Source: a bacterium (GTDB taxonomy: Bacteria > UBA8248). Taken from it: a DNA stretch of 64,000 bases. The stretch lies in contig OY843592.1 in assembly GCA_963692865.2 (NCBI GenBank), positions 3,840,001-3,904,000 on the forward strand, read 5' to 3'. The first letter of the stretch is position 1. The number at the start of each line of letters is the position of its first letter. Both the position numbers and the translations under genes were made by a program. Below are positions 28,196-49,376 of the stretch, piece by piece. The notes below the pieces were generated by a model that saw nothing but the letters and a program-made list of their open reading frames with translations, searched no databases and was not told the DNA's origin.

Positions 28196-28405
28196 CTAGC
28201 TCTTGAATCGTCTGAGATTCGTATTTTTCTTCCCGGGCTCCCTCCGGCTCATCCGCTCCAGGACAAGGCCGGCTTCGAGCGCTTGCTGGTTGAAGCGAAA
28301 CTCCTCCCAGGTGCAACGGGCCAGCAGGTGCGGGGGAAGGCCGTAGGTCTTCGCCTGAAAATGAATGACCGCCAGCAGTTCCTTGCTATACGCGCGGAAA
28401 CGCAT
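28196..28405 (-). CDS. Small ORF downstream of tail chaperone, likely the frameshift extension (gpT-like part)
   Basis: Overlaps the 3' end of the chaperone in the +1 frame; FRAYSKELLAVIHFQAKTYGLPPHLL..FRFNQ resembles phage chaperone extension domains (inference from position). Confidence 0.55.
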   Translation of the reverse strand: MRFRAYSKELLAVIHFQAKTYGLPPHLLARCTWEEFRFNQQALEAGLVLERMSRREPGKKNTNLRRFKS

Positions 28406-28778
28406 CGCCTTCCGGCGCGCCCTCCTCTGGGGCCGGAGCCGCCGCATCGTTCTGAAGCGTCATGACGGCGGTGAATATGGCGTCGGCGTCCGCCGGGGCG
28501 AGTTCATGGATGCTCAGTTCATCGGGCAGGCAACGCCCCGGCTCCTTATCCGTCATCGAGCCGCGCTCGGGAACGAAGCAGCGCCTCAGGATGCAGTGCG
28601 CCCACTCCCCCGTAAGCGCGTATCGCTCCTCCTCTCCCGCAGCGCCGTCAGCGGCGCCCGCGAAGAGCTTCGGGTACGCCGCCATGTCCAGGAGATTCGG
28701 CGCGCGCACGAAGCCCTTGAGCCCCGAGGGCAGGGTGATGGGCCTGCGCCCATGGTTTCTGTATTCCGAAATTTCCAC
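28386..28778 (-). CDS. Putative phage tail assembly chaperone
   Basis: 130 aa directly after tail tube, ITLPSG motif, SD AAAGGGAGG; assigned mainly by synteny. Confidence 0.6.
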   Translation of the reverse strand: MEISEYRNHGRRPITLPSGLKGFVRAPNLLDMAAYPKLFAGAADGAAGEEERYALTGEWAHCILRRCFVPERGSMTDKEPGRCLPDELSIHELAPADADAIFTAVMTLQNDAAAPAPEEGAPEGDAFPRV

Positions 28779-28850
28779 GATTCCTCCCTTTCGTTTTCGC
28801 TGAATCGAGACTTGACCAAGGTGAAGAAGCAGCCGCCTTCCAGACGGAGA

Positions 28851-29990
28851 CTAGGCGAAGACGATGGAAATCTCGTCGTCCCCCGCATTGCGCGCCAGGC
28901 GGAAAGGCGCATCGTAGGCCAGCAGGCCGTCCCGGTCCGAAAAGCCCATATCCGCGTACTGGCATTTGGGCGCGGTGATGGCGCAGACGTTCCCGGCCCT
29001 GTGGCCGACCTGCACGCTCAGGGGGAGATGCGCGCCGCTTTCCCAATCGGCGAACACGTCCTCGGTGGCCTTGAGCACGGCCTCGGGGTCGAAAGAGCCC
29101 GACGGCGCGCGGCCCGTCACCACGGCGTTCACGTGTCCGCCCGATGCGTTGGCGCTCTGGCGCAGGACAACCTCGTTGTTCATGGCGAAGCGGATGTTCG
29201 CCACGTCGAAATGGAAGCCTCCGAACGAAAAGCCGCTCATGAGGATGGGTTCGGGCGTCTGCCCGTCGTAGGACGCGCCGCCCGGGAGCGGCGCATCGCT
29301 CACCTCGAAATCGGCCGCCTCGAACTCCCAATCCACCGTGGGCACGCCGTCCAGGGGACAGTTGATGGAAAAACTCCCCATGCAGCCCAGATACATGACT
29401 TGCAAGCCGTCGATGAACGCCGTGATGCAGATTCTCGTATAGCTCGATTTGTCGGAGGCGGGCGCATAGGCGACGGAAGCGCCATCGACGACCGTCTCCT
29501 TCATCGCGCACGCCCTGAACAACAGGCCGTAATCGGGCGCGACGCCCGCGATGCCTGAGCCGCGCAACTCGGTGGCAAAGGAAATCTGCGCGGAGCGTTT
29601 TCCGGGAATCGACGGGAAAGGCGAGAGGCTCGCATCCTTCACCGCGCGCTCCAGTTGCTCCACGCCGATCTCGTGGGCGAAGTTGCCCGCCCGGAACAGT
29701 TCCGAGGCCGCCGCCGGCCGATCCAGCAAGTAGGCCGTGCCCGCGGCGGGGGCTGTGTCCCAGGCGGCGTCCACCGTGAGCGTGTCCGTGGCCGCGTCGA
29801 AATCGCTCACCTTTCTCCTTTGGCCAATGCCGACCCCCCGGATCGTGCGCAGCACCGAGCCGTTCCAGAAATCATCATCCTCCGCGAGCGCGGCGTCCAC
29901 CAGGGTGGAGGCGTCGGCGGAATCCGCCGCCAGCTCCTTCTCTTCCGTCGCGCCGATAGTCTGTCGATCCATCAATATCGTATCGCCCAT
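28851..29990 (-). CDS. Phage major tail tube protein (non-contractile type)
   Basis: SAQISFATELRGSG.AG.APDYG.LFRAC, YLGCMGSFSI, TGRAPSGSFDPE, NAGDDEISIVF; N-terminal beta-rich insertion; SD AAGGAGG. Confidence 0.75.
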   Translation of the reverse strand: MGDTILMDRQTIGATEEKELAADSADASTLVDAALAEDDDFWNGSVLRTIRGVGIGQRRKVSDFDAATDTLTVDAAWDTAPAAGTAYLLDRPAAASELFRAGNFAHEIGVEQLERAVKDASLSPFPSIPGKRSAQISFATELRGSGIAGVAPDYGLLFRACAMKETVVDGASVAYAPASDKSSYTRICITAFIDGLQVMYLGCMGSFSINCPLDGVPTVDWEFEAADFEVSDAPLPGGASYDGQTPEPILMSGFSFGGFHFDVANIRFAMNNEVVLRQSANASGGHVNAVVTGRAPSGSFDPEAVLKATEDVFADWESGAHLPLSVQVGHRAGNVCAITAPKCQYADMGFSDRDGLLAYDAPFRLARNAGDDEISIVFA

Positions 29991-30060
29991 CCCGTGTTCT
30001 CCTCCTTCCGTTTTGAGGCGAAGGCGCATCCTTCGCCGGTTTTCATGGCCTTTTCTTCGT

Positions 30061-30594
30061 TCAATCCCGCCGAATCCGCTCTACCGCCCGAATCCGTATT
30101 TCGGCGTAATGGCAAAGCACGTTCCCGAACGTCCTCAGTTCAATCAGGTCCACCTGCGGGGGCTGAAGGCGCTCCAGGGAGGGGACGCGCGGCGCTCCCG
30201 ATTCATCGAGAAGGCGAAGCGCCCCCTCGTCCCTGAAGCGGTCGCAAATCTCCTCGATCAGATCCTGGAAGGCCAACTCGCTGCCCGCCGCGTCCTCTGC
30301 GCTCATGATGCCGAAGAGCAGGAACGTGTGGGTTCGCCTGCCGAGGCCCGACGGGAGGAAGCCGCCTGCCGCGTTCGAGCCGATGGATGCGGCCTCCTCC
30401 CCGGCTCTCTCGCGCGTCAGCACCCAGCCCCTGATTTGAGCGACGCCGCCGCCCGCCTCCCACCGGAAAAGGTCCAGATATTTCCCCAGGTCGGCCGACC
30501 AGCGCTGATGGCCGTGCACCCGGCCCGCCTCCGGTACGCTCGATATTTCCGCCAAAACGGCGTCGCCGATTTCCCTGTATCGTGATTTAGCCAC
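30061..30594 (-). CDS. Putative tail terminator/completion protein
   Basis: AGRVHG.QRW, IRGWVLTR, SELAFQDLIEEICDRFR, FGNVLCHYAEI; position between neck and tube genes. Confidence 0.6.
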   Translation of the reverse strand: MAKSRYREIGDAVLAEISSVPEAGRVHGHQRWSADLGKYLDLFRWEAGGGVAQIRGWVLTRERAGEEAASIGSNAAGGFLPSGLGRRTHTFLLFGIMSAEDAAGSELAFQDLIEEICDRFRDEGALRLLDESGAPRVPSLERLQPPQVDLIELRTFGNVLCHYAEIRIRAVERIRRD

Positions 30595-31096
30595 CGATTT
30601 TCCTCGCAATTTCATCCATCAGTTGACCAATGCGCCCCTCGATCCAGCCCTGGTTTTCCTCGAAGGCGCGCGTGAACATGCGGCGTTCCCGTATCCCCCG
30701 CCGGGCGATAGCGCGGGCGACGAGGAAGGCGACGCTCTCGAAATCGTCACCCCGCGACTCCAGGTTCCGGACCACCCAGAGGTGCAGGGGCGAACCCTCC
30801 CTCCAAGGCGGCATTGCGCTTCCCGGACGGCGTCCGAATTCCACGGGGTCTGCATAAGGAGCGCGCGAGGCGACAACACCGCGCAACTCGCCCGGAATAT
30901 CACCTTCGATTTCGACGAAAATGCTCCCTCGCAGATTTCCACTTGCGCCGATGGACGTTCGCGTCATTACCTCGCGCCTGAGCATTCCGGTGATCTCGGC
31001 CATCGCTTCGCGCGCGAGACGGAAAACCTCCTCTTCTTCCCGCGCGTTTGGAGGCGTTTCCGCCAGGGCTTCCAGCGTTGCGCTCCGATGATTCAC
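30587..31096 (-). CDS. HK97 gp10-like tail/neck component
   Basis: GASGNLRGSI, YADPVEFGRRPG, VARAIARRG...MFTRAF pattern typical of HK97-gp10-like proteins. Confidence 0.7.
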   Translation of the reverse strand: MNHRSATLEALAETPPNAREEEEVFRLAREAMAEITGMLRREVMTRTSIGASGNLRGSIFVEIEGDIPGELRGVVASRAPYADPVEFGRRPGSAMPPWREGSPLHLWVVRNLESRGDDFESVAFLVARAIARRGIRERRMFTRAFEENQGWIEGRIGQLMDEIARKIGG

Positions 31097-31114
31097 GTCG
31101 TCTCTCCTCTCCGC

Positions 31115-31825
31115 CTAGCGATCCCCGGACGCGCCGTGCGTGAAGTATTCGCCGCGCCCCAGCGAGAGAAGCGCGTCCCAATCGAGAGACGCGCCGGCCG
31201 GACCCGCCACTTCGCCCTCCTTGCGGCCGAGATGGTTCTGGTATTTGCGCTCGAGCTCCCGGCCCAGGCGCGTGTATTCCGAAGACTTGCTCTGGTAGTC
31301 CACCGAATCCGCCGCGAGGGTCGGGTTCGAGGACTGGGCGAAGCGGCGGGCCAGCAGGTGGCAGCCCTCAGCGGCGGCCAGCCACGCTACGGCGGTCAGG
31401 TCGTTTTCGGGTACGCTCGTGCGCGCGTCGTCGGCCGTGTGCTTGATCGCGTAAAACAGGCGGAGCGTGTGGCCCATTTGAGGGGAGAAGTAGATGAGCC
31501 TGAACCTCGCCGCCGGGGTTCCTTTCGCATAGATGATCCAGGCGCTCCGCCGCAGGTAGGAGGGCTTTCTCTCCCCCTGGGGATATTCCACCTCCCGGAT
31601 GAAGGAGAGGGAATCGTCCCAGTCCTCCGGCAGGGGAAAATCGAAAGTTTCGCTGTCGCCCGCGTAATCGGCGAACGAGACGAGCGGCCTGTCCTTGCTG
31701 TAGCGCGTGAGCGCCGCGTTCACCAGATCGGCGTAGTCCGCCTCCTCGACCCCGAATTCCCGTGGCAGCGCGCCCGCCTTCAACAAAACCTTCACTTCCT
31801 TGATGATCGTCTGCCTGCCGGCCAT
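31115..31825 (-). CDS. Putative head-tail adaptor protein
   Basis: Position after capsid and decoration genes; ALTRYSKDRP, VEYPQG, ADSVDYQSKS; SD GGAGGAGG. Confidence 0.6.
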   Translation of the reverse strand: MAGRQTIIKEVKVLLKAGALPREFGVEEADYADLVNAALTRYSKDRPLVSFADYAGDSETFDFPLPEDWDDSLSFIREVEYPQGERKPSYLRRSAWIIYAKGTPAARFRLIYFSPQMGHTLRLFYAIKHTADDARTSVPENDLTAVAWLAAAEGCHLLARRFAQSSNPTLAADSVDYQSKSSEYTRLGRELERKYQNHLGRKEGEVAGPAGASLDWDALLSLGRGEYFTHGASGDR

Positions 31826-31856
31826 TTTTTCTCCTCCTCCTCGTTCTCTCGCGGCT

Positions 31857-32198
31857 TCAAGTCTTGAGCGTGAGCCTGGCCTCGAACGTAAACGAAGGCT
31901 CCTGCCCGCCGACGGACCACGCGAGCCGGAGCCAGGGGCCGACGTTCGCGAGCTTGACGAGGGTCTTGCCGGCCGAGGTGATTTGGGCAGGCCTGGTATG
32001 GACGAAAACCGCCTCATCGTCCGCAGGACCGGTCTGCACCTCGAAATCGAGCGCCGGCGAGGCGCCCGATACCGCCGTCACGTCGATGAACAAGAGCGCC
32101 TCGGTGAAGCGGCTCACCTCGAACGCCGTGCTGCCTCCCGCGGCGACGCGGGCCGCGGGTGGAGCGAGGGTGATGGTGTGGGTTCGCCTGTCGGACAT
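31857..32198 (-). CDS. Small beta-sandwich virion protein (capsid decoration-like)
   Basis: 113 aa, alternating beta pattern (IDVTAVSG.SP.LDFEVQT, WLRLAWSVGG.PSFTF), directly after capsid, SD GGAGGAG. Confidence 0.5.
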   Translation of the reverse strand: MSDRRTHTITLAPPAARVAAGGSTAFEVSRFTEALLFIDVTAVSGASPALDFEVQTGPADDEAVFVHTRPAQITSAGKTLVKLANVGPWLRLAWSVGGQEPSFTFEARLTLKT

Positions 32199-32232
32199 GG
32201 CTTCTCCTCCGAATGCGTATGCGCCGCGCTAA

Positions 32233-34314
32233 CTAGGCGGGCGCGCCGCGATAGAAGCCGCGGAAGTCCAGGACGGCGCCGCCGTAGACGTGCCTGATCT
32301 TGTAGCGAATCTTGTCCGCGCTGAATCCGCTGCCGGCGGAGGGGTTGTCCTCGATGAACAGTTCGGGCTCGCGCATGTCGTCCATGAAGCCGATCTCGAT
32401 TGTGTCCATGAGGCCCGGGTCGGCGATCATGTACCAATCGTTCGAGTCGGTGAGTTCGGGCGCCCACAAGGGCTCCACCCCCAGGCGGTTGATGAAGCTA
32501 GGCTGGTTGGAGTTTCCGCCCGCGACGACCTTGACGGGCGACTGGGTGACTTCGAACGCCTCTTCGAGCAGTTCGGTTGGGTGGACGAGGTATTTGGGCC
32601 GGGCCTGCGCCGCCACCTCGACGCCGTCTTCCCCATAAAACGTCTGCTGGCCCATCGCCTTGATGGCGGCGACGGCGTTGTCGTAGGTCAGCGCGTTCGC
32701 GGAGGCGTTGTGGTGGTCGTCGTGGAACAGCGTTTTACCGTCGTAGATGGCGGTGTTGGAGGCCAGAAAATCGAACACGAAGCCGTTCAGGGTGCGCTGG
32801 GCCGCGCGGGCGAGGCGCTGGGGGATCATGCGAATCGCGCCCATGTCGTCGTTCTGGATCATCTCCCAGGTGAGGTCTTCCACCCCACCGCGCTTGGAGA
32901 CGGCGTAGGTCACTTCCTCATCCGTCGGGGAGGTGAGCGCCGGATAGGCGGCCTGCTCGGCGACCGTTTGCAGATCGCCGTAGCCGCCGACGCGCACACG
33001 GCGGTTCGTGCGGAAATCCTTGACGGGCGTCACGGAGGAGACGATTTTCTTCCACTGGTGGAAGCGTTCGTCCCTGAAATCGCGAAGCATAGCGCGGCGG
33101 ATCGAATCCCCGAACGCCTCGCCCCACGTACTCGTCTGCAAGGAAGCGGAGAGGCGGCGCACCCCGTTCCAGTCCTCGGCGGCGCGGTGGTAGTGGAACG
33201 TCTCGGCGAAGAACTGGCGAGGTGCGAGGCGGTGGCCCGTGAAATCCTGAAACGCCTCGCTCATGAAGCGGTAGGGCCGCTCCCCGTCTACCGCCTCTTC
33301 ACGCGAACTCCAAAGCCCGTCGAGGGCCGCCTTCTTGCGGTCCGCCTCGTCCCGCATCACCTCCCCGCGCGCGCCGAAACCGCGCAGCGCGCCGCTCGCC
33401 GTGAGTTTTTCCAGCGTGGCCGCCTCGACCCGAATCGCCTCTTCGATCTCCTCCTCCGTGAAGCTCCCCTCGGCGAACTGGGCGCGCATTTTCTCCTGTA
33501 CGGCTTCGGGAAGTGCTGAGACCGCGAGTTTTTGCGCGAGCACGCTGCGCGCCGCGCCGCTCGGGGTCTTGGGCTTATCCGCCACGACCTCTTCTCCTTT
33601 TTTCTTCAGGTCCAGTTCAAGGTCCGCGTCTTCACAGGCCGCGAGGAACTGTTGCGGCGTCCAGGCATCGCCGAGTTTCTCGGCCGATTCGGGCGCCACG
33701 CTTTTGAGTTTCTTTCCGAGTTTTTCGAACATCTTCACCTCCGGTGTAGTGGAATGATTGGCGGCGAGACCCAGAATCCCGCCCCCGAGCTTGCCCTTGT
33801 GCACGACGTCGACGGAGTGAACCGCCAGAATTTTTTCGAAATGCAAAACGAGCCCACCGGCCTCCTCGCGGAACTCCGCCTGCGCGAGCACGTCGAAGGA
33901 AAAGCCGAAAGGCTCATCGAGACCCCGGGACAGCGCATCGTGCGCCAGCGCCTGAAACCACGACGCGGACCGCGAAACCGCAAACGTGCTCAAAAGCCCC
34001 TCCCCGCCCATGCGGACCTCGCGGTGCCAGCCGACCAGGTTCCTGATGTCGGGGCCGCTCGAGGCGGTGTGGTTCGCGAACGCCTGCGCGCCCTCGAACA
34101 GTGGAGCGGCCTCGCGCAGAACGTCGCCGGGCAGGAACCATTCCCCGTCCCTCGAGTAGCCGGCCCGCGCGATCAGCACCTCGAAATCCCAGGCCTCTTC
34201 CGGCGGCTGCGATTTATCCGCAACCGAGCGGATGATGTGGCCATGCAGCCTCAAAGTGTGAGAATCCTTCTGCGCCTCGGCGCGAGTCCATAAGCGGTTC
34301 ATCCATCTTTTCAA
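32233..34314 (-). CDS. Fused prohead protease/scaffold plus major capsid protein (Mu gpT-like, HK97 fold)
   Basis: N-terminal protease-like region (LFEGAQAFANH, RNLVGW, GFSFD, SVDVV), helical scaffold, then capsid (VKDFR, LTWEMIQNDDMGAI..IPQRL, YDGKTLFH.DH, PKYLVHP, IEIGF, RYKIRHVYGGAVLDFRG); SD AAAGGAG. Confidence 0.85.
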   Translation of the reverse strand: MKRWMNRLWTRAEAQKDSHTLRLHGHIIRSVADKSQPPEEAWDFEVLIARAGYSRDGEWFLPGDVLREAAPLFEGAQAFANHTASSGPDIRNLVGWHREVRMGGEGLLSTFAVSRSASWFQALAHDALSRGLDEPFGFSFDVLAQAEFREEAGGLVLHFEKILAVHSVDVVHKGKLGGGILGLAANHSTTPEVKMFEKLGKKLKSVAPESAEKLGDAWTPQQFLAACEDADLELDLKKKGEEVVADKPKTPSGAARSVLAQKLAVSALPEAVQEKMRAQFAEGSFTEEEIEEAIRVEAATLEKLTASGALRGFGARGEVMRDEADRKKAALDGLWSSREEAVDGERPYRFMSEAFQDFTGHRLAPRQFFAETFHYHRAAEDWNGVRRLSASLQTSTWGEAFGDSIRRAMLRDFRDERFHQWKKIVSSVTPVKDFRTNRRVRVGGYGDLQTVAEQAAYPALTSPTDEEVTYAVSKRGGVEDLTWEMIQNDDMGAIRMIPQRLARAAQRTLNGFVFDFLASNTAIYDGKTLFHDDHHNASANALTYDNAVAAIKAMGQQTFYGEDGVEVAAQARPKYLVHPTELLEEAFEVTQSPVKVVAGGNSNQPSFINRLGVEPLWAPELTDSNDWYMIADPGLMDTIEIGFMDDMREPELFIEDNPSAGSGFSADKIRYKIRHVYGGAVLDFRGFYRGAPA

Positions 34315-34410: not shown

Positions 34411-34462
34411 AATCTAGGGCAAGGAGTCTCTAAGGCGGGCCGCGCAAATGCGGGGAAATGCG
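34411..34462 (-). promoter_or_regulatory. Putative activator-dependent promoter of capsid/tail operon (22-bp box plus -10)
   Basis: CGCGCAAATGCGGGGAAATGCG at 34441-34462, then 24 nt, then TAGATT (minus, 34411-34416); same architecture at 49325-49376. Confidence 0.75.
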
Positions 34463-34671
34463 TATTTGACGTCTTTTTATGCAGAAATTTGATTTTGCTA
34501 ATTGCAAATCTCAAGAAAATGCGGCAACATACGGAAAATTCTGGAGTTGTGGGCAATGGGGGTGGTCCCGGCGTCTACCGATTCCGGATAATTCGCCCGC
34601 CAACTCGAAATTCCCGGATTCGCCGAGCGATAAAGACCGCCCCTTCGACGACACGAACGAGGTTTGATCTC

Positions 34672-35964
34672 ATGTGGGGCGTCGCTCAACCGGCCTTGAA
34701 TTTCTTCCAGAAACTCTCCTGGAACCATATGCTCGACATCGGGATCATGTGGTTCCTGCTCTACCAGGTCTACATTCGATTCAAGGGCACCCAGGCGATG
34801 CGCCTTCTCGTGCGCGTGTTCGCGGTCTGGCTCGTCTATCTCGCCTCCCAGGCCGCAGGCCTGCACCTGACTTCGTTCCTGCTGTGGGCCATCTGGATCG
34901 CCGTGCTCATCTTGTTTCTCATCAATTTCCACGGCGAGATCCAGAAGATATTCTTCCAGCTCAACCCGGTGCGCAGATTTTCCATCCTGCTGCGCCGGGC
35001 GATGCGCATCCGCCTGCCGGACGAGAGCGTCACCGCCATCGCCGAATCCGCCTTTTCGCTGGCGGCGAAGCACATGGGCGCCATCATCGTCGTGGAGCAC
35101 CGGGATTTGACCGACTCCCTGCTGAGAAGTCCGGGCGAGGAGATCGAGGCGGACATTCAGCCCGCGCTGCTGGAAACCATCTTCTTCAAGGGGGCGCCCT
35201 ACCACGACGGCGCCGCCGTCGTTCGCGGGAACAAGGTCTCGCGCGCGGGATGCGTTTTGCCCCTTTCGGAGAACCACGCCCTGCCGCCCGAGTTCGGCAC
35301 GCGCCACAGGGCGGCGGTCGGCATCACGGAACGCTGCGACGCCCTGGCGGTCGTCATATCCGAGGAACGCGGAGAGGTCACCTGCGTGGAGGGCGGCCAC
35401 GTCAAGGCGGTGGAGGATGAGGAGGAACTCGCCTCCTGGCTCACGGCGCGGCTGCGCGCGGCCCGCGAGGCGGGACAGACGAAAGGACGCATCTCGCTGC
35501 GCCACGTTTTCGAGAACTGGCGGCCCAAGCTCGCCGCCCTGGCCGCCGTCATTTTCCTCTGGTCGCTCGGCGGGCAGGAACACCAGAATCCGCAGAATTT
35601 CTTCCCGCAACTCGAAAGCAAGGTGGAGGAGGAATTCCGGGTCGCGGTCCACTACTACAACGTTCCCAACGGGGTCACCCTGCCGGCCGATGCGGCGAAA
35701 GAAGTCAAAATCCGCCTGAGAGGCAGGCGCGATCTCCTGAACTACATCGACGCCACCCGCCTGCGCGTAAACGTGAACCTCGCCAAAATGACGCCCGGCG
35801 CGCATTCGCGCACGCTGTCGGGCCGCGACATCGACCTGCCGAACGGTCTCGAATTCCTGAGCGCGGAACCCAGGGCCCTGAATTTGAACCTCGCCAAGGC
35901 GCCGACGCCAGAGAAAATGACGAAATCGAGCGCCTCCACCGAAACGCGCGAGTCCTCGAACTAA
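34672..35964 (+). CDS. Membrane diadenylate cyclase CdaA fused to a YbbR (CdaR-like) domain
   Basis: Three N-terminal TM helices, GAIIV, HDGA, CVLPLS, GTRHRAAVGITE, VISEERG; further TM then YbbR-like domain (VKIRLRG, VNL..MTPG, LPNGL). Confidence 0.88.
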   Translation: MWGVAQPALNFFQKLSWNHMLDIGIMWFLLYQVYIRFKGTQAMRLLVRVFAVWLVYLASQAAGLHLTSFLLWAIWIAVLILFLINFHGEIQKIFFQLNPVRRFSILLRRAMRIRLPDESVTAIAESAFSLAAKHMGAIIVVEHRDLTDSLLRSPGEEIEADIQPALLETIFFKGAPYHDGAAVVRGNKVSRAGCVLPLSENHALPPEFGTRHRAAVGITERCDALAVVISEERGEVTCVEGGHVKAVEDEEELASWLTARLRAAREAGQTKGRISLRHVFENWRPKLAALAAVIFLWSLGGQEHQNPQNFFPQLESKVEEEFRVAVHYYNVPNGVTLPADAAKEVKIRLRGRRDLLNYIDATRLRVNVNLAKMTPGAHSRTLSGRDIDLPNGLEFLSAEPRALNLNLAKAPTPEKMTKSSASTETRESSN

Positions 35965-36040
35965 GACCTCTCTTTTCAGATACCTGGATTTTCAGCGAAC
36001 CGGGAATTTGCTTTTTTCGCGCAATGGGGTGATATTGAAG

Positions 36041-36352
36041 GAACCGGGCCATCGCCGCCGAGATGTCCAAGGCGCTTTGACGAGCGATGCGGGCAAGCCA
36101 TCTTTGATGGTCCTCGGCGTCGGCCGAGTGAGGCGGGGAGGAGCCGACACAGAAAGCGGCTCCGGTCCGGTTTCGAGAAACCCCTCAAAGGAAGGAGGAT
36201 GCGATGATATCTACGATAAATCGCTTCGGCCGTGCGGAAACGCCGCCCTCCCCGGCCCCATCGCATCGGCCGGGCGGGGAGGAAAGCAAAAGGCTGATGC
36301 CCGAATAAAGGCGACATAACGCCTTCGTAAGGTGAGACGAGTTCTCGCCTCA
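36041..36352 (+). ncRNA. Candidate structured RNA (unassigned), possibly with a 34-aa ORF at 36204-36308
   Basis: Upstream TTGCTT-17-GATATT, several nested stems, downstream intrinsic terminator; no family recognised. Confidence 0.4.
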
Positions 36353-41394: not shown

Positions 41395-41474
41395 GAAGTA
41401 TTCATGGCCGGGCTAATGGGCAGCGGGCGGAGTGGATCGCTAAAGAATTTTGACGGCTTTACTTCAGAGTGGAT

Positions 41475-42068
41475 TCAACCACGAAAAGAATCGACTCCTT
41501 TATAATTGAGTACTGCGTTTGATTTGAGGCTCTTGATCAAAATGGCCTCTACTTGTTTACGCAATGTATCGTCCTCAATCTCAATATAAGAAGCCTGTTC
41601 GACTATCGGAGATTTGAACCAGAACTTTTCGAAATGTTGTTTCAAACGATTCTTTATGTTCTTGGATTGTCCGATGTAAATCAGGCGATCGCTTATATCG
41701 TAAAGCAGATAAACACCGGAAGTGGTAGGCCACTCTTCTTCATCATGCGGCGAAAAATCTTGGATTGACCCCAAGCCTTCTATGCGGGAGGCTTCGGCAG
41801 TATCTTTTGAATTCTCAACATCGCCTCGCGTCCATCGGTAAGTGCGATCTCCCCTTACCATCGCCCTCCGCTTTCGGAAGCCAAGGTTGCGGAGGCACTC
41901 GGCAATCCTCATCTGCGTGGGCCTGTCCAGCTTGTCCTCGTCAATGCGCAGAACATCCCGAGCGATTTCAGCAAGTGTCATATCTCCGCCATCATACGCC
42001 GAAAAGAACTCCTCGATGAAGTTTTCCCACTCGTCTATTGAGTGTTGCTCCTCGTATCGCAGCCTCAT
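41475..42068 (-). CDS. GIY-YIG nuclease domain protein with N-terminal helical DNA-binding-like domain
   Basis: GVYLLY..LIYIGQSKNIKNRLKQH..EAILI..LN; lower-GC segment; SD GAGGGAGG before ATG 42068. Confidence 0.75.
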   Translation of the reverse strand: MRLRYEEQHSIDEWENFIEEFFSAYDGGDMTLAEIARDVLRIDEDKLDRPTQMRIAECLRNLGFRKRRAMVRGDRTYRWTRGDVENSKDTAEASRIEGLGSIQDFSPHDEEEWPTTSGVYLLYDISDRLIYIGQSKNIKNRLKQHFEKFWFKSPIVEQASYIEIEDDTLRKQVEAILIKSLKSNAVLNYKGVDSFRG

Positions 42069-42373
42069 TCCCTCCCTCAATACTATAAATCGTCGGGGCA
42101 GACACACCAGACGCTTGAACCTAACTTGTTCATGGTAAGGCGTCAAGAATTTCCCAGTCGGGTTTCGGAGCATGATTTCTTCGGAAATCCTATGCCTTTA
42201 CTTCCCGAAAACCACTCTGGAACCCTCCCTTCCCCTCGAACCACAGCGGTTAGAATTGCTGGGAATTATCGCGACAGGCGGATTCGAACTCCCCGGAGGT
42301 TCATTCACAAGAGGTTGGACATGAGCGAACCGACTTGCCGCCGATTAGTTAAAGGAACACAGGAAATTACACG

Positions 42374-42568
42374 CTATTTCTCGGTATCTTCCAACCCTTT
42401 GTTGTAGCCGAGAGCGTAGATACAAAAAGGACATTTGCCAGCAGCCATCACCCTGCCCATGGGCGCATCAGGTAGCTGTTCTATCTTTTCCAGGAGAACT
42501 CTTGTTTTCTCTGGTATTTCTCGATGAGATGGTACGCTGTGTTTCGTGCAATTATTTCCAGGCCCCAT
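42374..42568 (-). CDS. Small Cys/His-containing hypothetical protein
   Basis: C..H..CPFC.YALGY pattern in low-GC island. Confidence 0.35.
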   Translation of the reverse strand: MGPGNNCTKHSVPSHREIPEKTRVLLEKIEQLPDAPMGRVMAAGKCPFCIYALGYNKGLEDTEK

Positions 42569-42658
42569 TAAATTTCTCTTTTCATAGGGATTTAACGCCA
42601 AGTATTCGTCGGGTTTGTTTTTCCTGCGCCAATCCCGACCTGCCCGACAGGACGGTTT

Positions 42659-43432
42659 TCATGAACGCATAATCGCGACTTCCGGCAATTCCGCATCCGG
42701 TTCCAACGGCAGAATTGCACGCGCTTGCGTGTAATCTCCCTCCTGCACAATTGGTGTAATTTTGCTGACTTGCCGCACCGCTATAGGGTGGCCATTGGTC
42801 GGGTCGCGACTCACCAATCCTTCCACGACAGCGTGTTTTCCCCAAACTTCTCTCATGAGATCTTCCTGACCAGATTGCAAATAACACGAAACCGGACGGT
42901 CATTCAGAGCGTCATATAGAGTGAATCGCAACACGTTTCGCTTTGTTAATGTCTGAACTTCTCCCTCCACGGCGCCAAAGGCCACAGATATTACATTTCC
43001 CGGCAGACTTAAAACGTTGTCCGCCGCTCTCGGCTTACCAGTTGGAGGATTATGCAAGATTACCGTTTCCTCTTGTGTCTCAAATCGGACTCGTTTGACG
43101 CCATTTCCAACCAAGCGTCCAAGTTTCATCGCTGGACCGGAAATTTTTCGTCCACGATCAATCCGAACATTTTCTCTAAGCGCTCTGCCAACGTCATTGT
43201 ACCCTCTTACAACCCGTTCGACCCTTTCCGATTGAAGGCTATATCCTTTAATGGTCGCTAATGCGCTCCCGGGCTGAAGGTCTTCGATCTTCCACTCAAT
43301 ACCGCCTCCCTCCTCAACCGTTAACGCACTGACGAGGCTATTCAGCGATTTTATCGCGGTGGCGAACGTCTCAAGAGTGACATCGCCTTCCAGCATCAGC
43401 GTAATCGTGTCAGGAGTCATTACTTCCCCCAT
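42659..43432 (-). CDS. Hypothetical protein in low-GC island
   Basis: 257-aa ORF with natural composition; no motif recognised with certainty. Confidence 0.6.
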   Translation of the reverse strand: MGEVMTPDTITLMLEGDVTLETFATAIKSLNSLVSALTVEEGGGIEWKIEDLQPGSALATIKGYSLQSERVERVVRGYNDVGRALRENVRIDRGRKISGPAMKLGRLVGNGVKRVRFETQEETVILHNPPTGKPRAADNVLSLPGNVISVAFGAVEGEVQTLTKRNVLRFTLYDALNDRPVSCYLQSGQEDLMREVWGKHAVVEGLVSRDPTNGHPIAVRQVSKITPIVQEGDYTQARAILPLEPDAELPEVAIMRS

Positions 43433-43698
43433 ATGGGGTTCCTAAAGGATGCGGTATTGATGGATATCCTAATCAGGATATCAATATGTCTAAGCCTATT
43501 GTCTCAAAATTTGCGTGTCAATCAATTCCCAATTCAGACCAAAACACCCCCAAAATCTCGTATTGATCCGAGAAGCGGATGCAGTTACGGCGCGAAAAAC
43601 TCTTTCTTCCCTCAGGCAGCGCCTTCGGTTAGAATGGCCGGAAATGATCGAAACGAGTGAATTCGACCTCCCCGAAAAACCTCACAATGGAGGATCAC

Positions 43699-44253
43699 AT
43701 GAGCGAAATGACGAAGGAGAAGGAAAAGATTCTCGTCTATGAACCCGTGGCGGAGGCGCCGGGCGCGGGCGCCGTCATGGCCGCGCGGCCCGAGAGCCTG
43801 AGCGGCAAGAGCGTGGGCCTCATCAACAACACCAAGGATTTCACGGATGAGATTTTCGACGTCATGGGCGCCGCGCTCGAAGAACAGTTCCCCGGCGTGC
43901 GCGTCGTGCGCTACAGGAAGGAATCCGTGAGCGGCGCATCGCCCGCCTTGATGGAGCAGGTGGAAGGAGAGTGCGACGCCGTCGTTTCCGCCCTCGGCGA
44001 CTGAGGCTCGTGCACGTCGTGGAGTATCCACGACAGCGTCGCCCTGGAGAAGAGAGGGCTTCCCACGGTCACGGTCGTCACCGACGCATTCGAGGCCTAC
44101 GCCAAACAGCTCACCAGGCTGCACAAGATGAGCGAACTTCCCCTCGTTACCCTGCCCCATCCCATCGCGGGCAGAAAGCGCGAGGAGGTGGACGAGATGT
44201 CGGCGAAGGCGAGCGCGCATCTGGCGTCCGCCCTCACGCAGGCGAGCGCTTGA
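43699..44253 (+). CDS. UGSC-motif selenoprotein candidate (in-frame UGA at 44002)
   Basis: LSGKSVGLINNTK..DAVVSALGD-[TGA]-GSCTSWSIHD..EKRGLPTV..PHPIAG; frame stays open to TGA 44251; SECIS-like hairpin 44016-44034. Confidence 0.9.
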
Positions 44254-44260
44254 TATCGGC

Positions 44261-45361
44261 ATGGACGCGCCAGAGCCCGCCCGCCGGATAGCGCTCGACG
44301 AAGACGCGGGCGCGATATACGAACACTTCTACGAGGAGGGCTGGACGGACGGGCTGCCCGTCATCCCGCCGACCGAGGAGCGCGTCTTAGAGACCCTTCG
44401 CTTCACGGACTATGCGCCGCACGACGTCATCGCCCACGTTCCGCCCCGGAATGCCCCGGCGACGGTGGAGATCATCGCCATCAACGCCGTGATGGCGGGC
44501 TGCAGGCCGGAATACCTGCCCGTTCTCATCGCCGCCGTTCAGGCCATGACGGAGCCGGCCTACAACCTCTACGGCCGCCAGACGACCACGCACCCCGGCG
44601 CGCACCTGATGATCGTCCACGGGCCGGTTCGGAACGAACTCGAAGTCAACTGCCGCCAGAACGTGTTCGGGCAGGGCCGTCGCGCCAACGCGACGCTCGG
44701 CCGCGCGGTGCGGCTCCTGATGATGAACGCCGGCGGCGGCATCCCCGGCGTGACGGACATGGCCACCCACGGGCATCCGGGCAAATACGCCTACACCATC
44801 GGCGAGGACGAGGAGGGAAGCCCCTGGCCGCCCTTTCACGTGGATAGAGGATTCGCGCCCGATACCTCCGCCGTCACCATGCTCTGCGCCGAATCGCCCC
44901 ACAACGTGAACGACCTCGTGAGCAAGACGCCGCATAAATACCTCGGCACGGCGGCTTCGGCCATGAGCCACCTGGGCGCCAACGGCGTCTACCGGAGCGG
45001 GCTGCCGAGCGAGCAGATGCTGGTGCTGACCGCGGAAGCGGCGACGTGGCTGTCGAATCAGGGGTGGTCGAAGGCCGACGTATCCCAGTTCATCTTCGAG
45101 AACGCGCGTCAGCCGATCCGCCTCATGCGCGACCGCGGCGGCTTCGACATGACGCCGCTCGCCCCCTTCGTGAACACGGACGAGGATGAGGACATGGCCC
45201 CCATCGTCCCGAGGCCGGAAGACATCCTCATCGTGGTCGCCGGCGGCCACGGCCGCCACATGCAGGCCGTCTTGACTGCGAGCTACAACCTGAGCGTCAC
45301 CAAAGCCATCACCAGAAAAGACGGAACGCCGCTCGGGTCTGTAAGGGAGTTCGTGGAGTGA
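44261..45361 (+). CDS. UGSC-associated conserved protein
   Basis: WTDGLPVIPPTEERV, IAINAVMAGCRPEY, RANATLGRA, HPGKY, EDEEGSPW; family commonly found beside UGSC proteins. Confidence 0.75.
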   Translation: MDAPEPARRIALDEDAGAIYEHFYEEGWTDGLPVIPPTEERVLETLRFTDYAPHDVIAHVPPRNAPATVEIIAINAVMAGCRPEYLPVLIAAVQAMTEPAYNLYGRQTTTHPGAHLMIVHGPVRNELEVNCRQNVFGQGRRANATLGRAVRLLMMNAGGGIPGVTDMATHGHPGKYAYTIGEDEEGSPWPPFHVDRGFAPDTSAVTMLCAESPHNVNDLVSKTPHKYLGTAASAMSHLGANGVYRSGLPSEQMLVLTAEAATWLSNQGWSKADVSQFIFENARQPIRLMRDRGGFDMTPLAPFVNTDEDEDMAPIVPRPEDILIVVAGGHGRHMQAVLTASYNLSVTKAITRKDGTPLGSVREFVE

Positions 45362-45379
45362 GGGGGGCAAATCTCCGAA

Positions 45380-45871
45380 TTACTCATAAGGTAGCGTGTG
45401 CGTCTGGATAACCTCGATATCGAAGTATCGCTCCATCTGCTTTATGCCTTGATCGTCCGAGTAAATCGTACTTTCATTTTGAGCGAGAGCGACGGCGACG
45501 ATTTGCCTGTCGTATTTGAGTTGTGCTTTCGTAAACGGAGATTGGGATTCGAACACGCGGTTCTCGTGAATTTTCTGTGTGACATGGACAAGCTTTTTCA
45601 CGGCATCAATGTCAAAACCTGCAATATGAAAGTGGCGGGATTGCTGGAGTATGGAAATCCACTCTTCTATGTTTCCTCTTGCAATAACGAGCACTTCCGC
45701 CAGTGCGGGAGTGGGTATGATGATTGGCTGGGATTTTGATTCCATATCGCGGATGAGATATTCGATCCGCTGACTCACATTGGCTAGGGGCTCACCGGTG
45801 GCGGGATCACTAGGTGGCTTGGCGTTCGGCTGCACCAAAAACATGAGAGTCGTTGCATCGAATACCGGCAT
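45380..45871 (-). CDS. PIN-domain (VapC-like) protein
   Basis: VFDAT, IIIPTPALAEVL, KYDRQIVAVA, IYSDD acidic PIN residues; low GC. Confidence 0.75.
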   Translation of the reverse strand: MPVFDATTLMFLVQPNAKPPSDPATGEPLANVSQRIEYLIRDMESKSQPIIIPTPALAEVLVIARGNIEEWISILQQSRHFHIAGFDIDAVKKLVHVTQKIHENRVFESQSPFTKAQLKYDRQIVAVALAQNESTIYSDDQGIKQMERYFDIEVIQTHTLPYE

Positions 45872-46089
45872 TACTTTCTAATCTCGACGCCTCGTTCCCT
45901 CATGAGTTCGGCATACGGGTCATCGACGCCATCGAACAACCCCAAACCTCTCATTTTGCGAACAACCGAACCGATCGACTCTTCGGCGGGTTCACGCCCA
46001 CTCGTTATATGCTCATCTTCTTGAAAATGGTTGTTGTTCCCAACGCCAAATTCAAGATTCGTTTTCTCTTCCTGATTTTTGTCGTCCAT
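45871..46089 (-). CDS. Small acidic protein, putative antitoxin
   Basis: 72 aa, stop overlaps PIN start, SD GGGGAG. Confidence 0.5.
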   Translation of the reverse strand: MDDKNQEEKTNLEFGVGNNNHFQEDEHITSGREPAEESIGSVVRKMRGLGLFDGVDDPYAELMRERGVEIRK

Positions 46090-46201: not shown

Positions 46202-47575
46202 CTACCCATCCACGCTCATGCCGAACTGGCCCGCGAGGTGGGTGATGAGCCTGCCGGCGGCGTCATCGCTCATCCAGCCGCGTGAGGTGGCCGTCTCGAG
46301 CGCGGCGCTCACGCGCAGGAGCGCCTGGGACATCTTCTCGGTGTCGCGCACGGAGATATCCGGCAGAACGGGCGAGACGCCCGAGCGCAGCGCTTCTTCA
46401 CTCAGCGCGCCCGCGCGGCGGGCTTCCTCCAACTGCTTGTCGGCCATGGCCTGCAGGATATGGCGCACGGTGCGCTGGCGGCGCGTCATCTTCTTGAGCG
46501 TGGGCTGATCCATCGACTCGGCCGAGGCGCGGTTCACGTCCTCTCCCTGGGCGAACCAGTGGGAGGGAACGCCCACGCCGCCGAGCAGCAGGCCGCGCAT
46601 CATCTTGGCGATCCCCTGCGCGCCGGACTCGCCGCCTTTCAAGTCGGGCGAGACGGCTTGCCACTCCTCTTTCTCGTTGTGAACGCGCACGCTGGAGGGC
46701 TTGGGCGCGACGCCGTTCTCGGCGAGCCACTCGGCTATCTTCTCGGGGCCCGCGCCCTTGAGCGTTACGTCGTAGATGAAGCTGTTCTGCAGGCGCGCGC
46801 GCTCCACGGCGTCGAATATGAAGCGCTCGTAGGTGTCTATCCAGTCGATGGCGGCGAGCAGATCGGAAGCCCCGCGCGCGGCGTCGCTCGCCTTGTTTAT
46901 CTGGAACAGGAACGCCTCCCCGTCTGTGAAGCGCGCCCGCTCCTTCTGCGCGGAGGCGCTCAGGTAGCCGCGCGGGTCGCCGCCCAGCGCCGTCCGGATG
47001 CGCTTGCCCTTTCGCGCCGCCCCGCCCGGACCGTCTGCGCGCAGGACGACCCCTACGGCCAGGGCGCAGTTGTCCGGGTCCATCACCACCTCCTCTATCA
47101 GGCGCGGGCTGACGTAGCCGAGCCGGACGCGCCCCTCGAAGCGCGAGACGGCGACGGGCAGGAGGAGTTCCCCGAAGATGCCGAGTTCGGAGACCAGCCG
47201 CTCGAAGCGGATGTCCATCTGGTTCACGGGGTCGGCCCAGAACGCCTTCACGGCGCGCAGGGCGCGCTCATCCTCCCCGTGCCAGCTCACCCCCTCGCCC
47301 ACGACGTGGTCCGTAACGATCTCGATCAGCCGCTGGCCCATCAGGTTCGTGAGCCAAAGCTCATACGCCAGCGCCTGCATGCGCGCGTGGGTGTAGGGCG
47401 AAACCCCGCCGCGCCCCTCGCCCAGGGGCCGCCATATCCGCTCGTCCGGATCAATCGCCGCGCTCATTCGCCCCGAGCGCCGCGCGGCCGCCTTCACTCT
47501 CCCGGCATCTCCCTTGTTCCCGGGTCCCGACTTCCGCCCGGGAGCCTTCACCCTCTTTACACTCTCCATCCTCAT
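46202..47575 (-). CDS. Phage portal protein
   Basis: RLIEIVTDHVVGEG, FWADPVN, ELGIFGE, RGASDL, VRVHNEKEEW, GVPSHWF..DVNRASA, RRQ; directly after terminase. Confidence 0.82.
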   Translation of the reverse strand: MRMESVKRVKAPGRKSGPGNKGDAGRVKAAARRSGRMSAAIDPDERIWRPLGEGRGGVSPYTHARMQALAYELWLTNLMGQRLIEIVTDHVVGEGVSWHGEDERALRAVKAFWADPVNQMDIRFERLVSELGIFGELLLPVAVSRFEGRVRLGYVSPRLIEEVVMDPDNCALAVGVVLRADGPGGAARKGKRIRTALGGDPRGYLSASAQKERARFTDGEAFLFQINKASDAARGASDLLAAIDWIDTYERFIFDAVERARLQNSFIYDVTLKGAGPEKIAEWLAENGVAPKPSSVRVHNEKEEWQAVSPDLKGGESGAQGIAKMMRGLLLGGVGVPSHWFAQGEDVNRASAESMDQPTLKKMTRRQRTVRHILQAMADKQLEEARRAGALSEEALRSGVSPVLPDISVRDTEKMSQALLRVSAALETATSRGWMSDDAAGRLITHLAGQFGMSVDG

Positions 47576-48219
47576 CTCCTCTCGATCATCCGCTGGTGAT
47601 AAGTCCGCGGCGTCACCGTGCCCCCGGCGAAGGGGGCCAGCACGCCCTCGCTCCGCGCCAGGGACTCGGCCAGCCGCGCATAGGCGCAGGCGAAGCCGAA
47701 GTGGTTCTCGTTCCGCTCATACGCCAGCGCCGTCTCCCCGGAGGAGCGGACGCGCGGCTTTTTTCTCAAATTCATCAGGTGACGCTCCACCTCGTTCAGG
47801 AGCGCCTCCTCCCCGGTGTCCTTTGGACTCGGCAGCAGGACACGCCCGGCGCCCTCGTGGAACTCCTCCACCAGGTGATCGAGCAAATCCTCGCGGTTCA
47901 TGCGCACGTGGCGGCGCTCGACCCCCAGAAACGAGACATCCTTGATCTGCATCTCGCCCTCGGTGTGCCGCCAGATGAAGCCGCCGTCCGGATTCAAGTC
48001 GTACACCGCGCGCGCCTCCCGGGTGTGGGGTCCGCCGTCTATGACGAACGCCTCCACGCCCAGGCCCGAGAACACGGCGCGGCACCGCGCGATGAGCCGC
48101 TCGACGGGCAGGGATTCGAAATATATCCACCGGGCGGGCCGGCCCTCCCCGTGTTCGCGCACTGCAAGCGCGCAGGCGTCGCCCGTGTCGATTCCGCAGA
48201 AACGATGCGCCGCGCTCAC
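47572..48219 (-). CDS. Terminase large subunit, C-terminal RNase H-like nuclease domain as a separate gene
   Basis: GTG start overlapping upstream TGA (GTGA) with SD GGAGG 7 nt upstream; FCGIDTG, VIDGGP, NHFGFACAY. Confidence 0.78.
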   Translation of the reverse strand: MSAAHRFCGIDTGDACALAVREHGEGRPARWIYFESLPVERLIARCRAVFSGLGVEAFVIDGGPHTREARAVYDLNPDGGFIWRHTEGEMQIKDVSFLGVERRHVRMNREDLLDHLVEEFHEGAGRVLLPSPKDTGEEALLNEVERHLMNLRKKPRVRSSGETALAYERNENHFGFACAYARLAESLARSEGVLAPFAGGTVTPRTYHQRMIERR

Positions 48220-49274
48220 GCGGGCGCCTCCGCCAGGCGATAGGGCGCGGCGTCGCGCAGCTTCCCGAGCAACTCGCGGGAGATCGGCTGGGCGTCGCCC
48301 GCATCGGGGATGGCGAGCGCCGAGCAGCGAAAGCGCGCCCTCTCGCTCGGGAGGCGGGCGGCGGCCCATTTCGCCTTGATGCGGTCGAGGCGCACCGCGC
48401 CGACCGCGAGTTGGGAGAGGCGGTAGCTCCTGTGCCGCCGATTCGCCCGCGCGGCCTCCCACCGCCCCGCGCCTCTCTTGAGCGCGCCGCCACAGTCCGG
48501 GCAAGCGAGGCCGCCCCCGCGCAGGATGCCTGGCCAGTTCTCCTCCAGGACGCTCCCGGCGCGGCACGCCGGGCACCTCACGCGCCAGCGCCTCCGGTCT
48601 CCCGCCTCGTACATGGCGTGAATGCCCGCGCCCGGGGTTCTGCCGACGGCCAGGTTGAGCGTCAGGGCGAGCGGCGAGGCGTCGATGCGGTCGTTCGACC
48701 ACTTGAGGTTCTCCGGCGGCAGGTCGTCCACCTCGTCGCGAATCAGCACGTCGAGCGGAATCGATATGGCGTTGCCGATGTCCCTGAGACCCAGGATGTA
48801 GAGAAAACGCGAACCCCCGCTTCCGGGGAATTCCTTCAAGCCCTTGGGCGACGCGCCCTTGTATTCCCCATCGCGCATGAGCGAGGCGATGCGCCCGCCC
48901 CTGAGCGCGGGGCGCACGCGCGTCTGGTCGAAGCGGTCGGCGAAATCCTGATCGGGCAGAAAATAGCCCACGTTCAGGCGGTGGACGATGACGCAGTAAA
49001 GCGCAAAACCGATGGCGAACGTCGTCATGCCCACCTGCGCGCCCTTGAGGACGCTGACGGTCCGATCGGGCGCGCGATCCTTCAGCACCCCGTCGAGCGC
49101 GGCGACAATCTCCAAAAGCGCCTCTCTGCCCTCGAAGGTGAACGCGCCGGTGTCGGTCGACATCCCGCTCGTCAGAAACCGGGCCAGCCCGCGCGCCTCG
49201 CCCGAAAAGCGCGGGGCTCCGCCGGTCGTAAGGGCCATGCCGGGGGCCCGAAGGATTTTTCGGGACTTGCGCAA
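48216..49274 (-). CDS. Terminase large subunit, N-terminal ATPase domain (GpA-like)
   Basis: Walker A-like KGAQVGMTT, YFLP, Walker B DVLIRDEVD, DRRRW..CPAC..CPDC Zn motif; TTG start with SD GGAGGAG. Confidence 0.82.
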   Translation of the reverse strand: MRKSRKILRAPGMALTTGGAPRFSGEARGLARFLTSGMSTDTGAFTFEGREALLEIVAALDGVLKDRAPDRTVSVLKGAQVGMTTFAIGFALYCVIVHRLNVGYFLPDQDFADRFDQTRVRPALRGGRIASLMRDGEYKGASPKGLKEFPGSGGSRFLYILGLRDIGNAISIPLDVLIRDEVDDLPPENLKWSNDRIDASPLALTLNLAVGRTPGAGIHAMYEAGDRRRWRVRCPACRAGSVLEENWPGILRGGGLACPDCGGALKRGAGRWEAARANRRHRSYRLSQLAVGAVRLDRIKAKWAAARLPSERARFRCSALAIPDAGDAQPISRELLGKLRDAAPYRLAEAPA

Positions 49275-49324
49275 TGCCGGAACTCCTCCAGTCCAAGGAT
49301 GCCGCGCGCATCCTCACGGGGAGG

Positions 49325-49376
49325 AATATAGGGGATGGGGGCCGTGAGCCATGACGCGCAAATGCGGGGAAATGCG
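49325..49376 (-). promoter_or_regulatory. Putative activator-dependent promoter of terminase-portal operon (22-bp box plus -10)
   Basis: CGCGCAAATGCGGGGAAATGCG at 49355-49376, then 24 nt, then TATATT (minus, 49325-49330). Confidence 0.75.

Follow-up and report, generated by a model that had tools for sequence, protein, structure and literature searches.

A window of 64,000 nucleotides (nt) in the 4.15-Mb, 61% GC genome of a bacterium (G000:C1:3840001-3904000) carries two operons of phage virion genes, termed here operons A and B. Together with a third locus, locus C, 2.2 Mb away from the window, they make up what is probably a domesticated, vertically inherited gene set for a siphovirus-type virion, dispersed over three chromosomal loci and likely to represent a gene transfer agent (GTA). 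The evidence that a dispersed phage-particle gene set is vertically inherited and selectively maintained is strong. Gene transfer is its most likely function as judged from gene content, and co-regulation of the operons, particle formation, random packaging of DNA and transfer are likewise predictions. Public records of metagenome-assembled genomes with close relatives of the capsid gene bear the titles Nitrospinota, Nitrospinaceae, Tectomicrobia or plain "bacterium", several of them being sponge bins, and the DNA sequencing runs that contain parts of the window are mostly labelled sponge metagenome, with small shares each.

Gene families were assigned by Pfam and PHROGs profile searches of the open reading frames (ORFs). 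Selection was measured as the ratio of nonsynonymous to synonymous divergence (dN/dS), given throughout as the median pairwise Nei-Gojobori value over 8-21 genomes per gene, and distributions were counted in 22 genomes of the genus, 41 of the family and 9 from other families of the class. The genes of operons A (28196-34314) and B (46202-49274) are the following, with lengths in amino acids (aa):

32233-34314, minus strand: head maturation protease-major capsid fusion, 693 aa (Phage_capsid_4, 1.2e-46; phrog_4523 "major head and protease", 4.5e-52)
31857-32198, minus strand: head- or neck-associated protein, 113 aa (65-90% identity in relatives; dN/dS 0.31)
31115-31825, minus strand: protein of about 236 aa in the head-tail connector position
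30587-31096, minus strand: HK97 gp10-like neck or tail-completion protein (Pfam HK97-gp10_like, 2.5e-4; phrog_5, 3.9e-11)
30061-30615, minus strand: 184-aa protein directly before the tube gene (dN/dS 0.21)
28851-30029, minus strand: tail tube protein, 392 aa (Phage_tube_2, 3.5e-13; phrog_290, 2.5e-16; dN/dS 0.19)
28386-28778 and 28196-28447, minus strand: two overlapping small ORFs of 130 and 83 aa in the tail-assembly-chaperone position (conserved; dN/dS 0.16 and 0.29)
48216-49274, minus strand: ATPase half of the large terminase, 352 aa, in its own ORF (Pfam GpA_ATPase, 6.6e-16; dN/dS 0.22)
47572-48219, minus strand: nuclease half of the large terminase, 215 aa, in its own ORF (phrog_675 terminase large subunit, 1.3e-11; dN/dS 0.21)
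46202-47575, minus strand: portal protein, 457 aa (phrog_10963, 3.7e-46; dN/dS 0.15)

All of these ORFs are intact at the coordinates given in an earlier note on this DNA, which had described two intact minus-strand phage gene sets here, and the capsid fusion, the gp10-like protein, the tube, both terminase halves and the portal have family support. The capsid fusion gene is present in one copy in the genome, has a dN/dS of 0.185 and gives in addition a weak Pfam match to Mu gpT (6e-6); a sequence search of the PDB with its product returned nothing useful. Of 14 control genomes, those of Caulobacter vibrioides and Synechococcus elongatus likewise give a match to the Pfam family Phage_capsid_4. 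No Pfam match was obtained for the operon A ORFs 31857-32198, 31115-32017, 30061-30615, 28386-28778 and 28196-28447, the first of which has only a weak PHROGs match (phrog_9522 "major tail protein", 2.9e-4), and the labels decoration, adaptor and terminator that had been proposed within this operon, like OsmC and UGSC for ORFs elsewhere in the window, found no family match and stand unconfirmed. The operon A ORFs without a clear family are conserved and under purifying selection. For the connector-position protein the ORF extends over 300 aa (31115-32017), and its true start is probably an internal ATG giving about 236 aa, since the relatives align only from residue 54-65 onward. The 184-aa protein may be the tail terminator, a role suggested by its position. 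In the overlap of the two chaperone-position ORFs (28196-28778) no canonical slippery heptamer was found.

The large terminase (TerL) of operon B is encoded in two pieces. The GTG start of the nuclease ORF overlaps the TGA stop of the ATPase ORF (GTGA), and by our reading of the sequence these overlapping codons couple the translation of the two ORFs. Such an overlap, ATGA or GTGA, is present in 23 of 23 loci, since an A or a G stands before the TGA stop of the ATPase ORF; of the 23, 20 show a two-base offset of the best nuclease match, and by our own reading 19 have a GGAGG a few bases upstream of the nuclease start. The three exceptions to the offset are a locus whose best nuclease match lies in another frame and is restricted to residues 73-222 (L039), one that runs off its contig (L059) and one with a partial match (L060). 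Homologues of the ATPase ORF in the databases form two groups: 51 clusters with at least 53% identity have lengths of 271-408 aa, and 17 clusters at 34-46% identity are fused proteins of 552-611 aa; three further matches are fragments. The nuclease ORF covers positions 360-548 of the 576 of the phrog_675 profile. The split falls in the interdomain linker, because one fused homologue of 552 aa spans both ORFs, the ATPase ORF aligning to residues 14-326 at 45% identity and the nuclease ORF to residues 344-549 (E 2e-20); it is also derived, and as old as the element of this family. The arrangement resembles that of the GpA-type (lambda-like) large terminases in that the ATPase ORF matches GpA_ATPase and fused homologues align with the nuclease ORF over their C-terminal third; however, those enzymes carry ATPase and nuclease in one polypeptide, whereas here two polypeptides are made from overlapping genes, both under purifying selection. 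A literature search on separately encoded terminase domains found none.

Locus C (C1:1633466-1640345, that is 7466-14345 of L037, G000:C1:1626001-1646000) was traced via contiguous clusters of three distant relatives (L030, L031 and G027), in which the chaperone genes are directly followed by a tape measure gene and a gene of about 370-600 aa, and then by the 177- and 403-aa genes. Its genes are:

Locus C, minus strand: distal-tail gene, 368 aa (follows the tape measure in the contiguous relatives)
Locus C, minus strand: 177-aa gene (assigned by position only)
Locus C, minus strand: 403-aa gene (assigned by position only)
Locus C, minus strand: receptor-binding-like gene, 313 aa (nearest language-model clusters viral, one with the Mtd receptor-binding domain family mtd_2nd)
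Locus C, minus strand: 231-aa gene (no family match)
Locus C, minus strand: membrane/coiled-coil protein, 127 aa (by eye, a hydrophobic helix at the N terminus and a coiled coil)
Locus C, minus strand: tape measure, 561 aa (tape-measure-like; phrog_1535, 1.2e-5)

The 313-, 231-, 177-, 403- and 368-aa proteins gave no match in Pfam or PHROGs, and a sequence search of the PDB with the 368- and 403-aa proteins returned nothing useful. AlphaFold2 models of the 403- and 368-aa proteins, built from 16-row alignments, are poor, with predicted local distance difference test (pLDDT) values of 38 and 51. Foldseek searches with the 368-aa model found nothing in the PDB at E<=0.001, giving there only weak matches to CBM32/discoidin-like domains, and in BFVD recovered 22 viral matches of low template-modelling (TM) score, weak evidence in which a few are named minor tail protein. 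One relative of the 368-aa gene has a weak Laminin_G_3 match, in a stretch that is absent from the version in this genome. For the 231-aa protein the nearest language-model clusters (ESM Atlas) include a viral one, with XkdW in 15% of its members, a lead only. The tape measure gene follows the tail-tip genes here and precedes them in the contiguous relatives; the order looks like a circular permutation, such as transfer of the module via a circular intermediate would leave. The layout of locus C is kept in 15 of 15 relatives fetched, adjoining cinA and usually also hexapeptide-transferase/Ppx genes.

The capsid, the terminase ATPase, the tape measure and the 368-aa gene occur in the same 20 of the 22 genus genomes, their orthologues being single copy; G009 and G010, which are 99% and 95% complete, lack all four. 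In all 20 carriers the capsid, ATPase and tape measure genes, at 66-91% identity, are free of internal stops, and the 368-aa gene is whole in 17, being in two pieces in the G006, G015 and G018 assemblies. In the family the capsid is found in 32 of 41 genomes (by genus 20/22, 4/4, 1/1, 1/1, 1/2, 1/1, 1/1, 3/5 and 0/4), while the other families of the class have only relatives of about 40% identity, in 4 of 9 genomes. The gene order is fixed in those genus loci whose flank is long enough: amt, then TerL-ATPase, TerL-nuclease and portal, then a block of host genes, then capsid to chaperones, then cofE. One of the two genomes that lack the system, G010, retains cofE, cdaA, the deaminase, the dehydrogenase, both luciferase-like monooxygenases (LLMs) and the 366-aa gene of this neighborhood in order, with about 580 bp left at the former operon A site and the last 26 or so portal codons placed directly beside a two-mismatch copy of the promoter box, described below, in front of amt. 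These retained host genes and the scar of portal remnant and box mark a loss of the system from this genome by deletion rather than a primary absence.

All 19 system genes tested have dN/dS values well below 1: 0.15-0.30 for the portal, both terminase halves, capsid, tube, chaperones, tape measure and all locus C genes, and 0.31-0.45 for three small neck genes; the neighboring host genes cofE, 3-hydroxyisobutyrate dehydrogenase (HIBDH), LLMs, cdaA, cinA and the 366-aa gene lie at 0.12-0.30. In trees of six phage genes and six linked host genes the deep splits agree and the branch lengths are similar. The single-copy orthologues in 20 of 22 genomes, their fixed position and these ratios bear out the earlier proposal of a domesticated particle.

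The two operons of the window are preceded by the same promoter elements:

34441-34462, minus strand: 22-bp promoter box of operon A, CGCATTTCCCCGCATTTGCGCG, identical to the operon B box
49355-49376, minus strand: 22-bp promoter box of operon B, CGCATTTCCCCGCATTTGCGCG, two tandem 10-bp units CGCATTTSCC
34411-34416, minus strand: -10-like hexamer TAGATT of operon A, 24 nt downstream of the box
49325-49330, minus strand: -10-like hexamer TATATT of operon B, 24 nt downstream of the box

All four system operons of the genome have the same architecture, namely the box, 24 nt and then a hexamer (TAGATT, TATATT, TATATT and TACACT), with a 19-nt core of the box ending 83-129 nt before the start codon. 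If transcription starts a few bases past the hexamer, the tandem 10-bp direct repeat would lie at about -58 to -37. No recognisable -35 element is present at the four promoters, and readings of the box as a sigma-54 site or an ordinary -35 were rejected on spacing. The box lies upstream of the capsid gene with at most two mismatches in 14 of 14 genus loci checked and is absent in three loci of other genera. It lies upstream of the 368-aa gene in 16 of 16 loci, and upstream of TerL in 20 of 21 genus loci including that of the window, where the 19-nt core has at most one mismatch and starts 99-103 nt before the ATPase start codon; the twenty-first TerL locus (G019) has a degenerate copy at the same spacing.

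Relatives outside the genus retain arrangements from which the present one can be derived. In a genome of another family of the class (G027:C6, about 103-128 kb) the portal, fused capsid, neck and 368/177/403-aa genes, at 27-49% identity, stand in one contiguous prophage-like block in the ancestral order; this block differs in having an Amidase_3 endolysin, Dam and D12 methylases, a Mu-F-like match below the Pfam cut-off (23.0 vs 29.6 bits), one terminase-sized ORF of 529 aa without family match and no box, and in its own family it has a patchy distribution, occurring in 3 of 7 genomes. Within the window's family itself the run of genes from capsid to tail tip remains unbroken in other genera (G048/L030 and G055), a third genus has the order amt-TerL-portal-LLM-cdaA-capsid (L035), and the capsid gene beside cdaA recurs in several genera (L025, L035 and L036). 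For the genus of the window, the module of tape measure and tail tip has been relocated to a site 2.2 Mb away. Beyond this class, Microcystis phage Mae-JY22 (PP438414.1), which stands with related siphoviruses that bear protease-capsid fusions, has a full-length fused capsid ORF of 771 aa (33% identity over 95% of the query) and homologous genes in the same order: after the capsid (the approximately 236-aa protein, tblastn 5e-23), before the tube (the 184-aa protein, 1.4e-12) and the tube itself. It differs in being a contiguous 41-kb phage genome whose chaperone-sized genes lead straight into the tape measure and whose tail genes are closely followed by one for an adenine methylase, and its terminase and portal have no similarity detectable by tblastn.

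The layout also departs from that of an intact temperate prophage, the genes being split by a conserved host block of 10-12 kb and by 2.2 Mb. As had been claimed earlier, no integrase adjoins the operons: the window contains no tyrosine-recombinase match, and the nearest of the 11 such matches in the genome lie about 60 kb from operon A and about 100 kb from locus C. No tRNA lies near operon A or operon B, and no integration, replication or lysogeny genes were seen among the annotated neighbors of the loci. Because its genes lie megabases apart and no such genes accompany them, the particle could not carry its own genome, and host DNA is therefore the most likely cargo, as in a GTA. In the scheme that we propose a box-reading factor would switch the four operons on together, procapsids would mature through the fused protease, the two-piece GpA-type terminase would fill them with DNA, and non-contractile tails of roughly 80 nm would be added. 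The last figure follows from the 561 aa of the tape measure and the rule that a tail measures about 1.5 A per tape-measure residue.

Several observations weigh against the interpretation as a GTA. 1) Among the public sequencing runs, no RNA run matched the phage-gene locus. 2) Pfam and PHROGs recognised no small terminase, endolysin or holin in the three loci, the only part of the genome screened for them, and the 127-aa membrane/coiled-coil protein is a candidate by eye only. The earlier expectation that the missing genes would lie elsewhere came true for the tape measure and the tail tip, which stand at locus C behind the same box. 3) The tail-tip roles are suggested by gene order together with weak signals, namely low pLDDT values, low-TM Foldseek matches and language-model look-alikes. 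4) Between the trees of phage genes and of host genes there is conflict at shallow nodes, some having support of 93-99, and the host genes used are linked to the locus, so that the comparison measures co-divergence with the neighborhood and not agreement with an independent species tree; for the tree check that the earlier note had proposed, agreement is seen in the deep branches. 5) In another genus (G048:C1:3141638-3142656) the ATPase gene aligns as two separate pieces and contains a TGA in frame, which may be either a broken gene or an assembly error. 6) On this genome alone the box is not private to the system, being found at 78 sites with at most two mismatches, among them sites in front of mnmA-type, PDH E1, LLM, SCO1, DUF192, TctC and TauE genes.

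The last point is the starting point of the alternative that fares best, according to which the box is merely a common promoter element of the genus, UP-like or the site of a global regulator, with no bearing on any dedicated co-regulation of the phage operons. Consistent with this, copies with at most two mismatches number 34-119 in 18 genus genomes, and many of those in the window's genome sit in multi-copy repeat contexts, several sharing the downstream -10 and 5' untranslated region too. There the 22-mer occurs at 84 sites with at most four mismatches, against about 0.3 expected by chance on a rough estimate, and the 19-nt core at 104 sites with at most three, 30 of which have TAnnnT exactly 27 nt on and at most five at any other offset. 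The few-copy genomes argue otherwise. In G015 only three boxes have at most one mismatch, and they precede the capsid, TerL and 368-aa genes; G019 likewise has three with at most two mismatches, two of which precede the capsid and 368-aa genes, while its TerL promoter keeps the degenerate copy at the usual spacing; of the genomes without the system G009 has no box, and G010 has four, one being the scar at the former TerL promoter. Moreover, its presence at all four system operons is unlikely to be a coincidence (on a rough guess, about 100 sites for about 2000 transcription units). The box noted earlier as shared by both operons is identical over its 22 bp and almost private to the system in these two sister species, though not in the genome under study, and we regard a mere common element as somewhat unlikely. 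In our reading the box is the system's own control site, multiplied later in most species; the reverse order, with a general element secondarily lost in the few-copy species, is possible. The contrast in copy number suggests bursts of amplification of a promoter module, reminiscent of "mobile promoter" behaviour.

A second alternative accepts domestication and denies transfer: the particle might be kept as a PBSX-like killing particle that packages DNA, or as a mover of one chromosomal region or satellite. Conservation, selection and dispersal would fit any particle that benefits the host, gene data do not reveal the cargo, and the XkdW lead for the 231-aa protein concerns a PBSX family; yet no toxin, sheath or baseplate-type genes are seen in the three loci, the dN/dS values of the terminase halves and portal (0.15-0.22) indicate that DNA packaging itself matters, and the surroundings of the loci, though not searched systematically, showed no sign of an amplifiable origin or a satellite. 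We consider this use of the particle improbable. An old defective prophage, fragmented by rearrangement and decaying without present function, is hardly credible, for although the cluster is broken into three pieces, lacks recognised small terminase and lysis genes, is lost in 2 of 22 genus genomes with no capsid found in 9 of 41 family genomes, and has an ATPase gene that looks broken in one relative, its capsid, ATPase and tape measure genes are free of internal stops, the 368-aa gene is whole in 17 of 20 carriers, the system genes evolve at 0.15-0.45, in the range of adjacent housekeeping genes, its promoters and coupled ATGA/GTGA junction are conserved, and its loss is all-or-none across the three loci.

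The gene set considered as a probable GTA resembles the known agents as a class (RcGTA, BaGTA, VSH-1, Dd1 and VTA) in several respects. Its head, packaging and tail genes derive from a phage and come with no functions for replication or integration; they are inherited vertically, kept by purifying selection and spread over several loci. Expression from a common regulatory site would be a further shared trait, predicted here from promoter sequence. It differs in its host lineage, represented by records titled Nitrospinota, Nitrospinaceae or Tectomicrobia, in having the terminase in two ORFs and in that no small terminase subunit (TerS) was found in the three loci. RcGTA has accessory loci at several sites and a terminase, portal and capsid of other families; the families here are GpA_ATPase, Phage_capsid_4 and Phage_tube_2, a distinction drawn at the level of families. 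VSH-1 reportedly has a "divided genome". Our literature searches found no description of such an element in Nitrospinota or Tectomicrobia, for GTAs in sponge symbionts they returned alphaproteobacterial work only, and on prophages of sponge-associated Nitrospinota they gave only work that is probably unrelated; the genomes would thus bear the signature of a GTA not described before in this group. Known GTAs are described as packaging DNA by the headful and as having a TerS without a DNA-binding domain (PMC11841831).

The stretch between the operons and its flanks contain further features:

34489-45871, no strand: resident host-gene block between the operons (Pfam; wherever a genus locus extends this far, the same block separates portal from capsid)
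41475-42173, strand unstated: GIY-YIG gene, in a low-GC stretch
42659-43432, strand unstated: 257-aa gene, in a low-GC stretch
45380-45871, strand unstated: 163-aa gene (phrog_21691, 4e-18)

The host block comprises a cdaA-like gene (DAC and YbbR), a cytidine/dCMP-type deaminase, an HIBDH-like gene, the two LLMs and the 366-aa gene, together with variable low-GC inserts; the cdaA-like, deaminase and LLM genes had been named earlier as host genes and were found by Pfam. Within it the region 41400-46000 has a GC content of only 49-55%. The GIY-YIG, 257-aa and 163-aa genes look like accessory inserts, since each occurs in some relatives only, and are possibly mobile or defence-related. The 366-aa gene (44261-45361) has no Pfam match and exceeds every other gene of the region in conservation (79-97% identity, dN/dS 0.12), its family having 7-16 matches per genome in four relatives, partly in tandem arrays. 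An intergenic low-GC stretch contains a 38-nt inverted repeat (37325-37362 and 37494-37531) with arms 92% complementary and 131 nt apart. The minus-strand ORFs 26284-26706, 43612-44262 and 36211-36708 were dropped as system genes; their dN/dS values are about 0.9-1.3, with very little synonymous divergence in the first two, and all three are probably non-coding in that frame. Opposite-strand ORFs at the first two places (26302-26634 and 43657-44004) have better GC content at third codon positions.

Short dispersed intergenic repeats saturate the genome. Just downstream of operon A, at 27000-27920, a repeat unit of about 475 bp is tandemly duplicated, its pieces having 584 blastn matches genome-wide, and the stretch upstream of TerL (49380-49640) has 367. 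In relatives cofE and a short conserved stretch, that of the doubtful ORF 26284-26706, sit much nearer to the chaperone genes, and for this reason the block at 27000-27920 looks like an insertion in the window's genome. Inverted repeats at 27.1 kb and 49.5 kb were rejected as ends of an element, being members of repeat families with hundreds of copies genome-wide.

Tentatively, we further propose that the set represents an independently evolved GTA of an uncultured, largely sponge-associated, Nitrospinota-like family, with a split terminase assembling in trans, a stepwise dispersal from one contiguous cluster to three loci, and a dedicated box that afterwards rose to some 100 copies per genome, bringing housekeeping genes under the control of the particle's regulon or the reverse. 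As the family keeps the intermediate stages, namely the contiguous, the half-dispersed and the three-locus arrangement and a clean deletion in two species, the order of the steps of domestication may be read from it. The conserved division of the terminase into ATPase and nuclease offers a natural experiment on building a packaging motor from two chains, and the box illustrates the spread of one promoter module through a genome. The GTAs known to have evolved independently are few, and the alphaproteobacterial type has been studied most. If the proposed function is right, the range of such gene exchange would extend to another phylum-level lineage, one of uncultured symbionts, and recombination inside sponge microbiomes would have a route of this kind.

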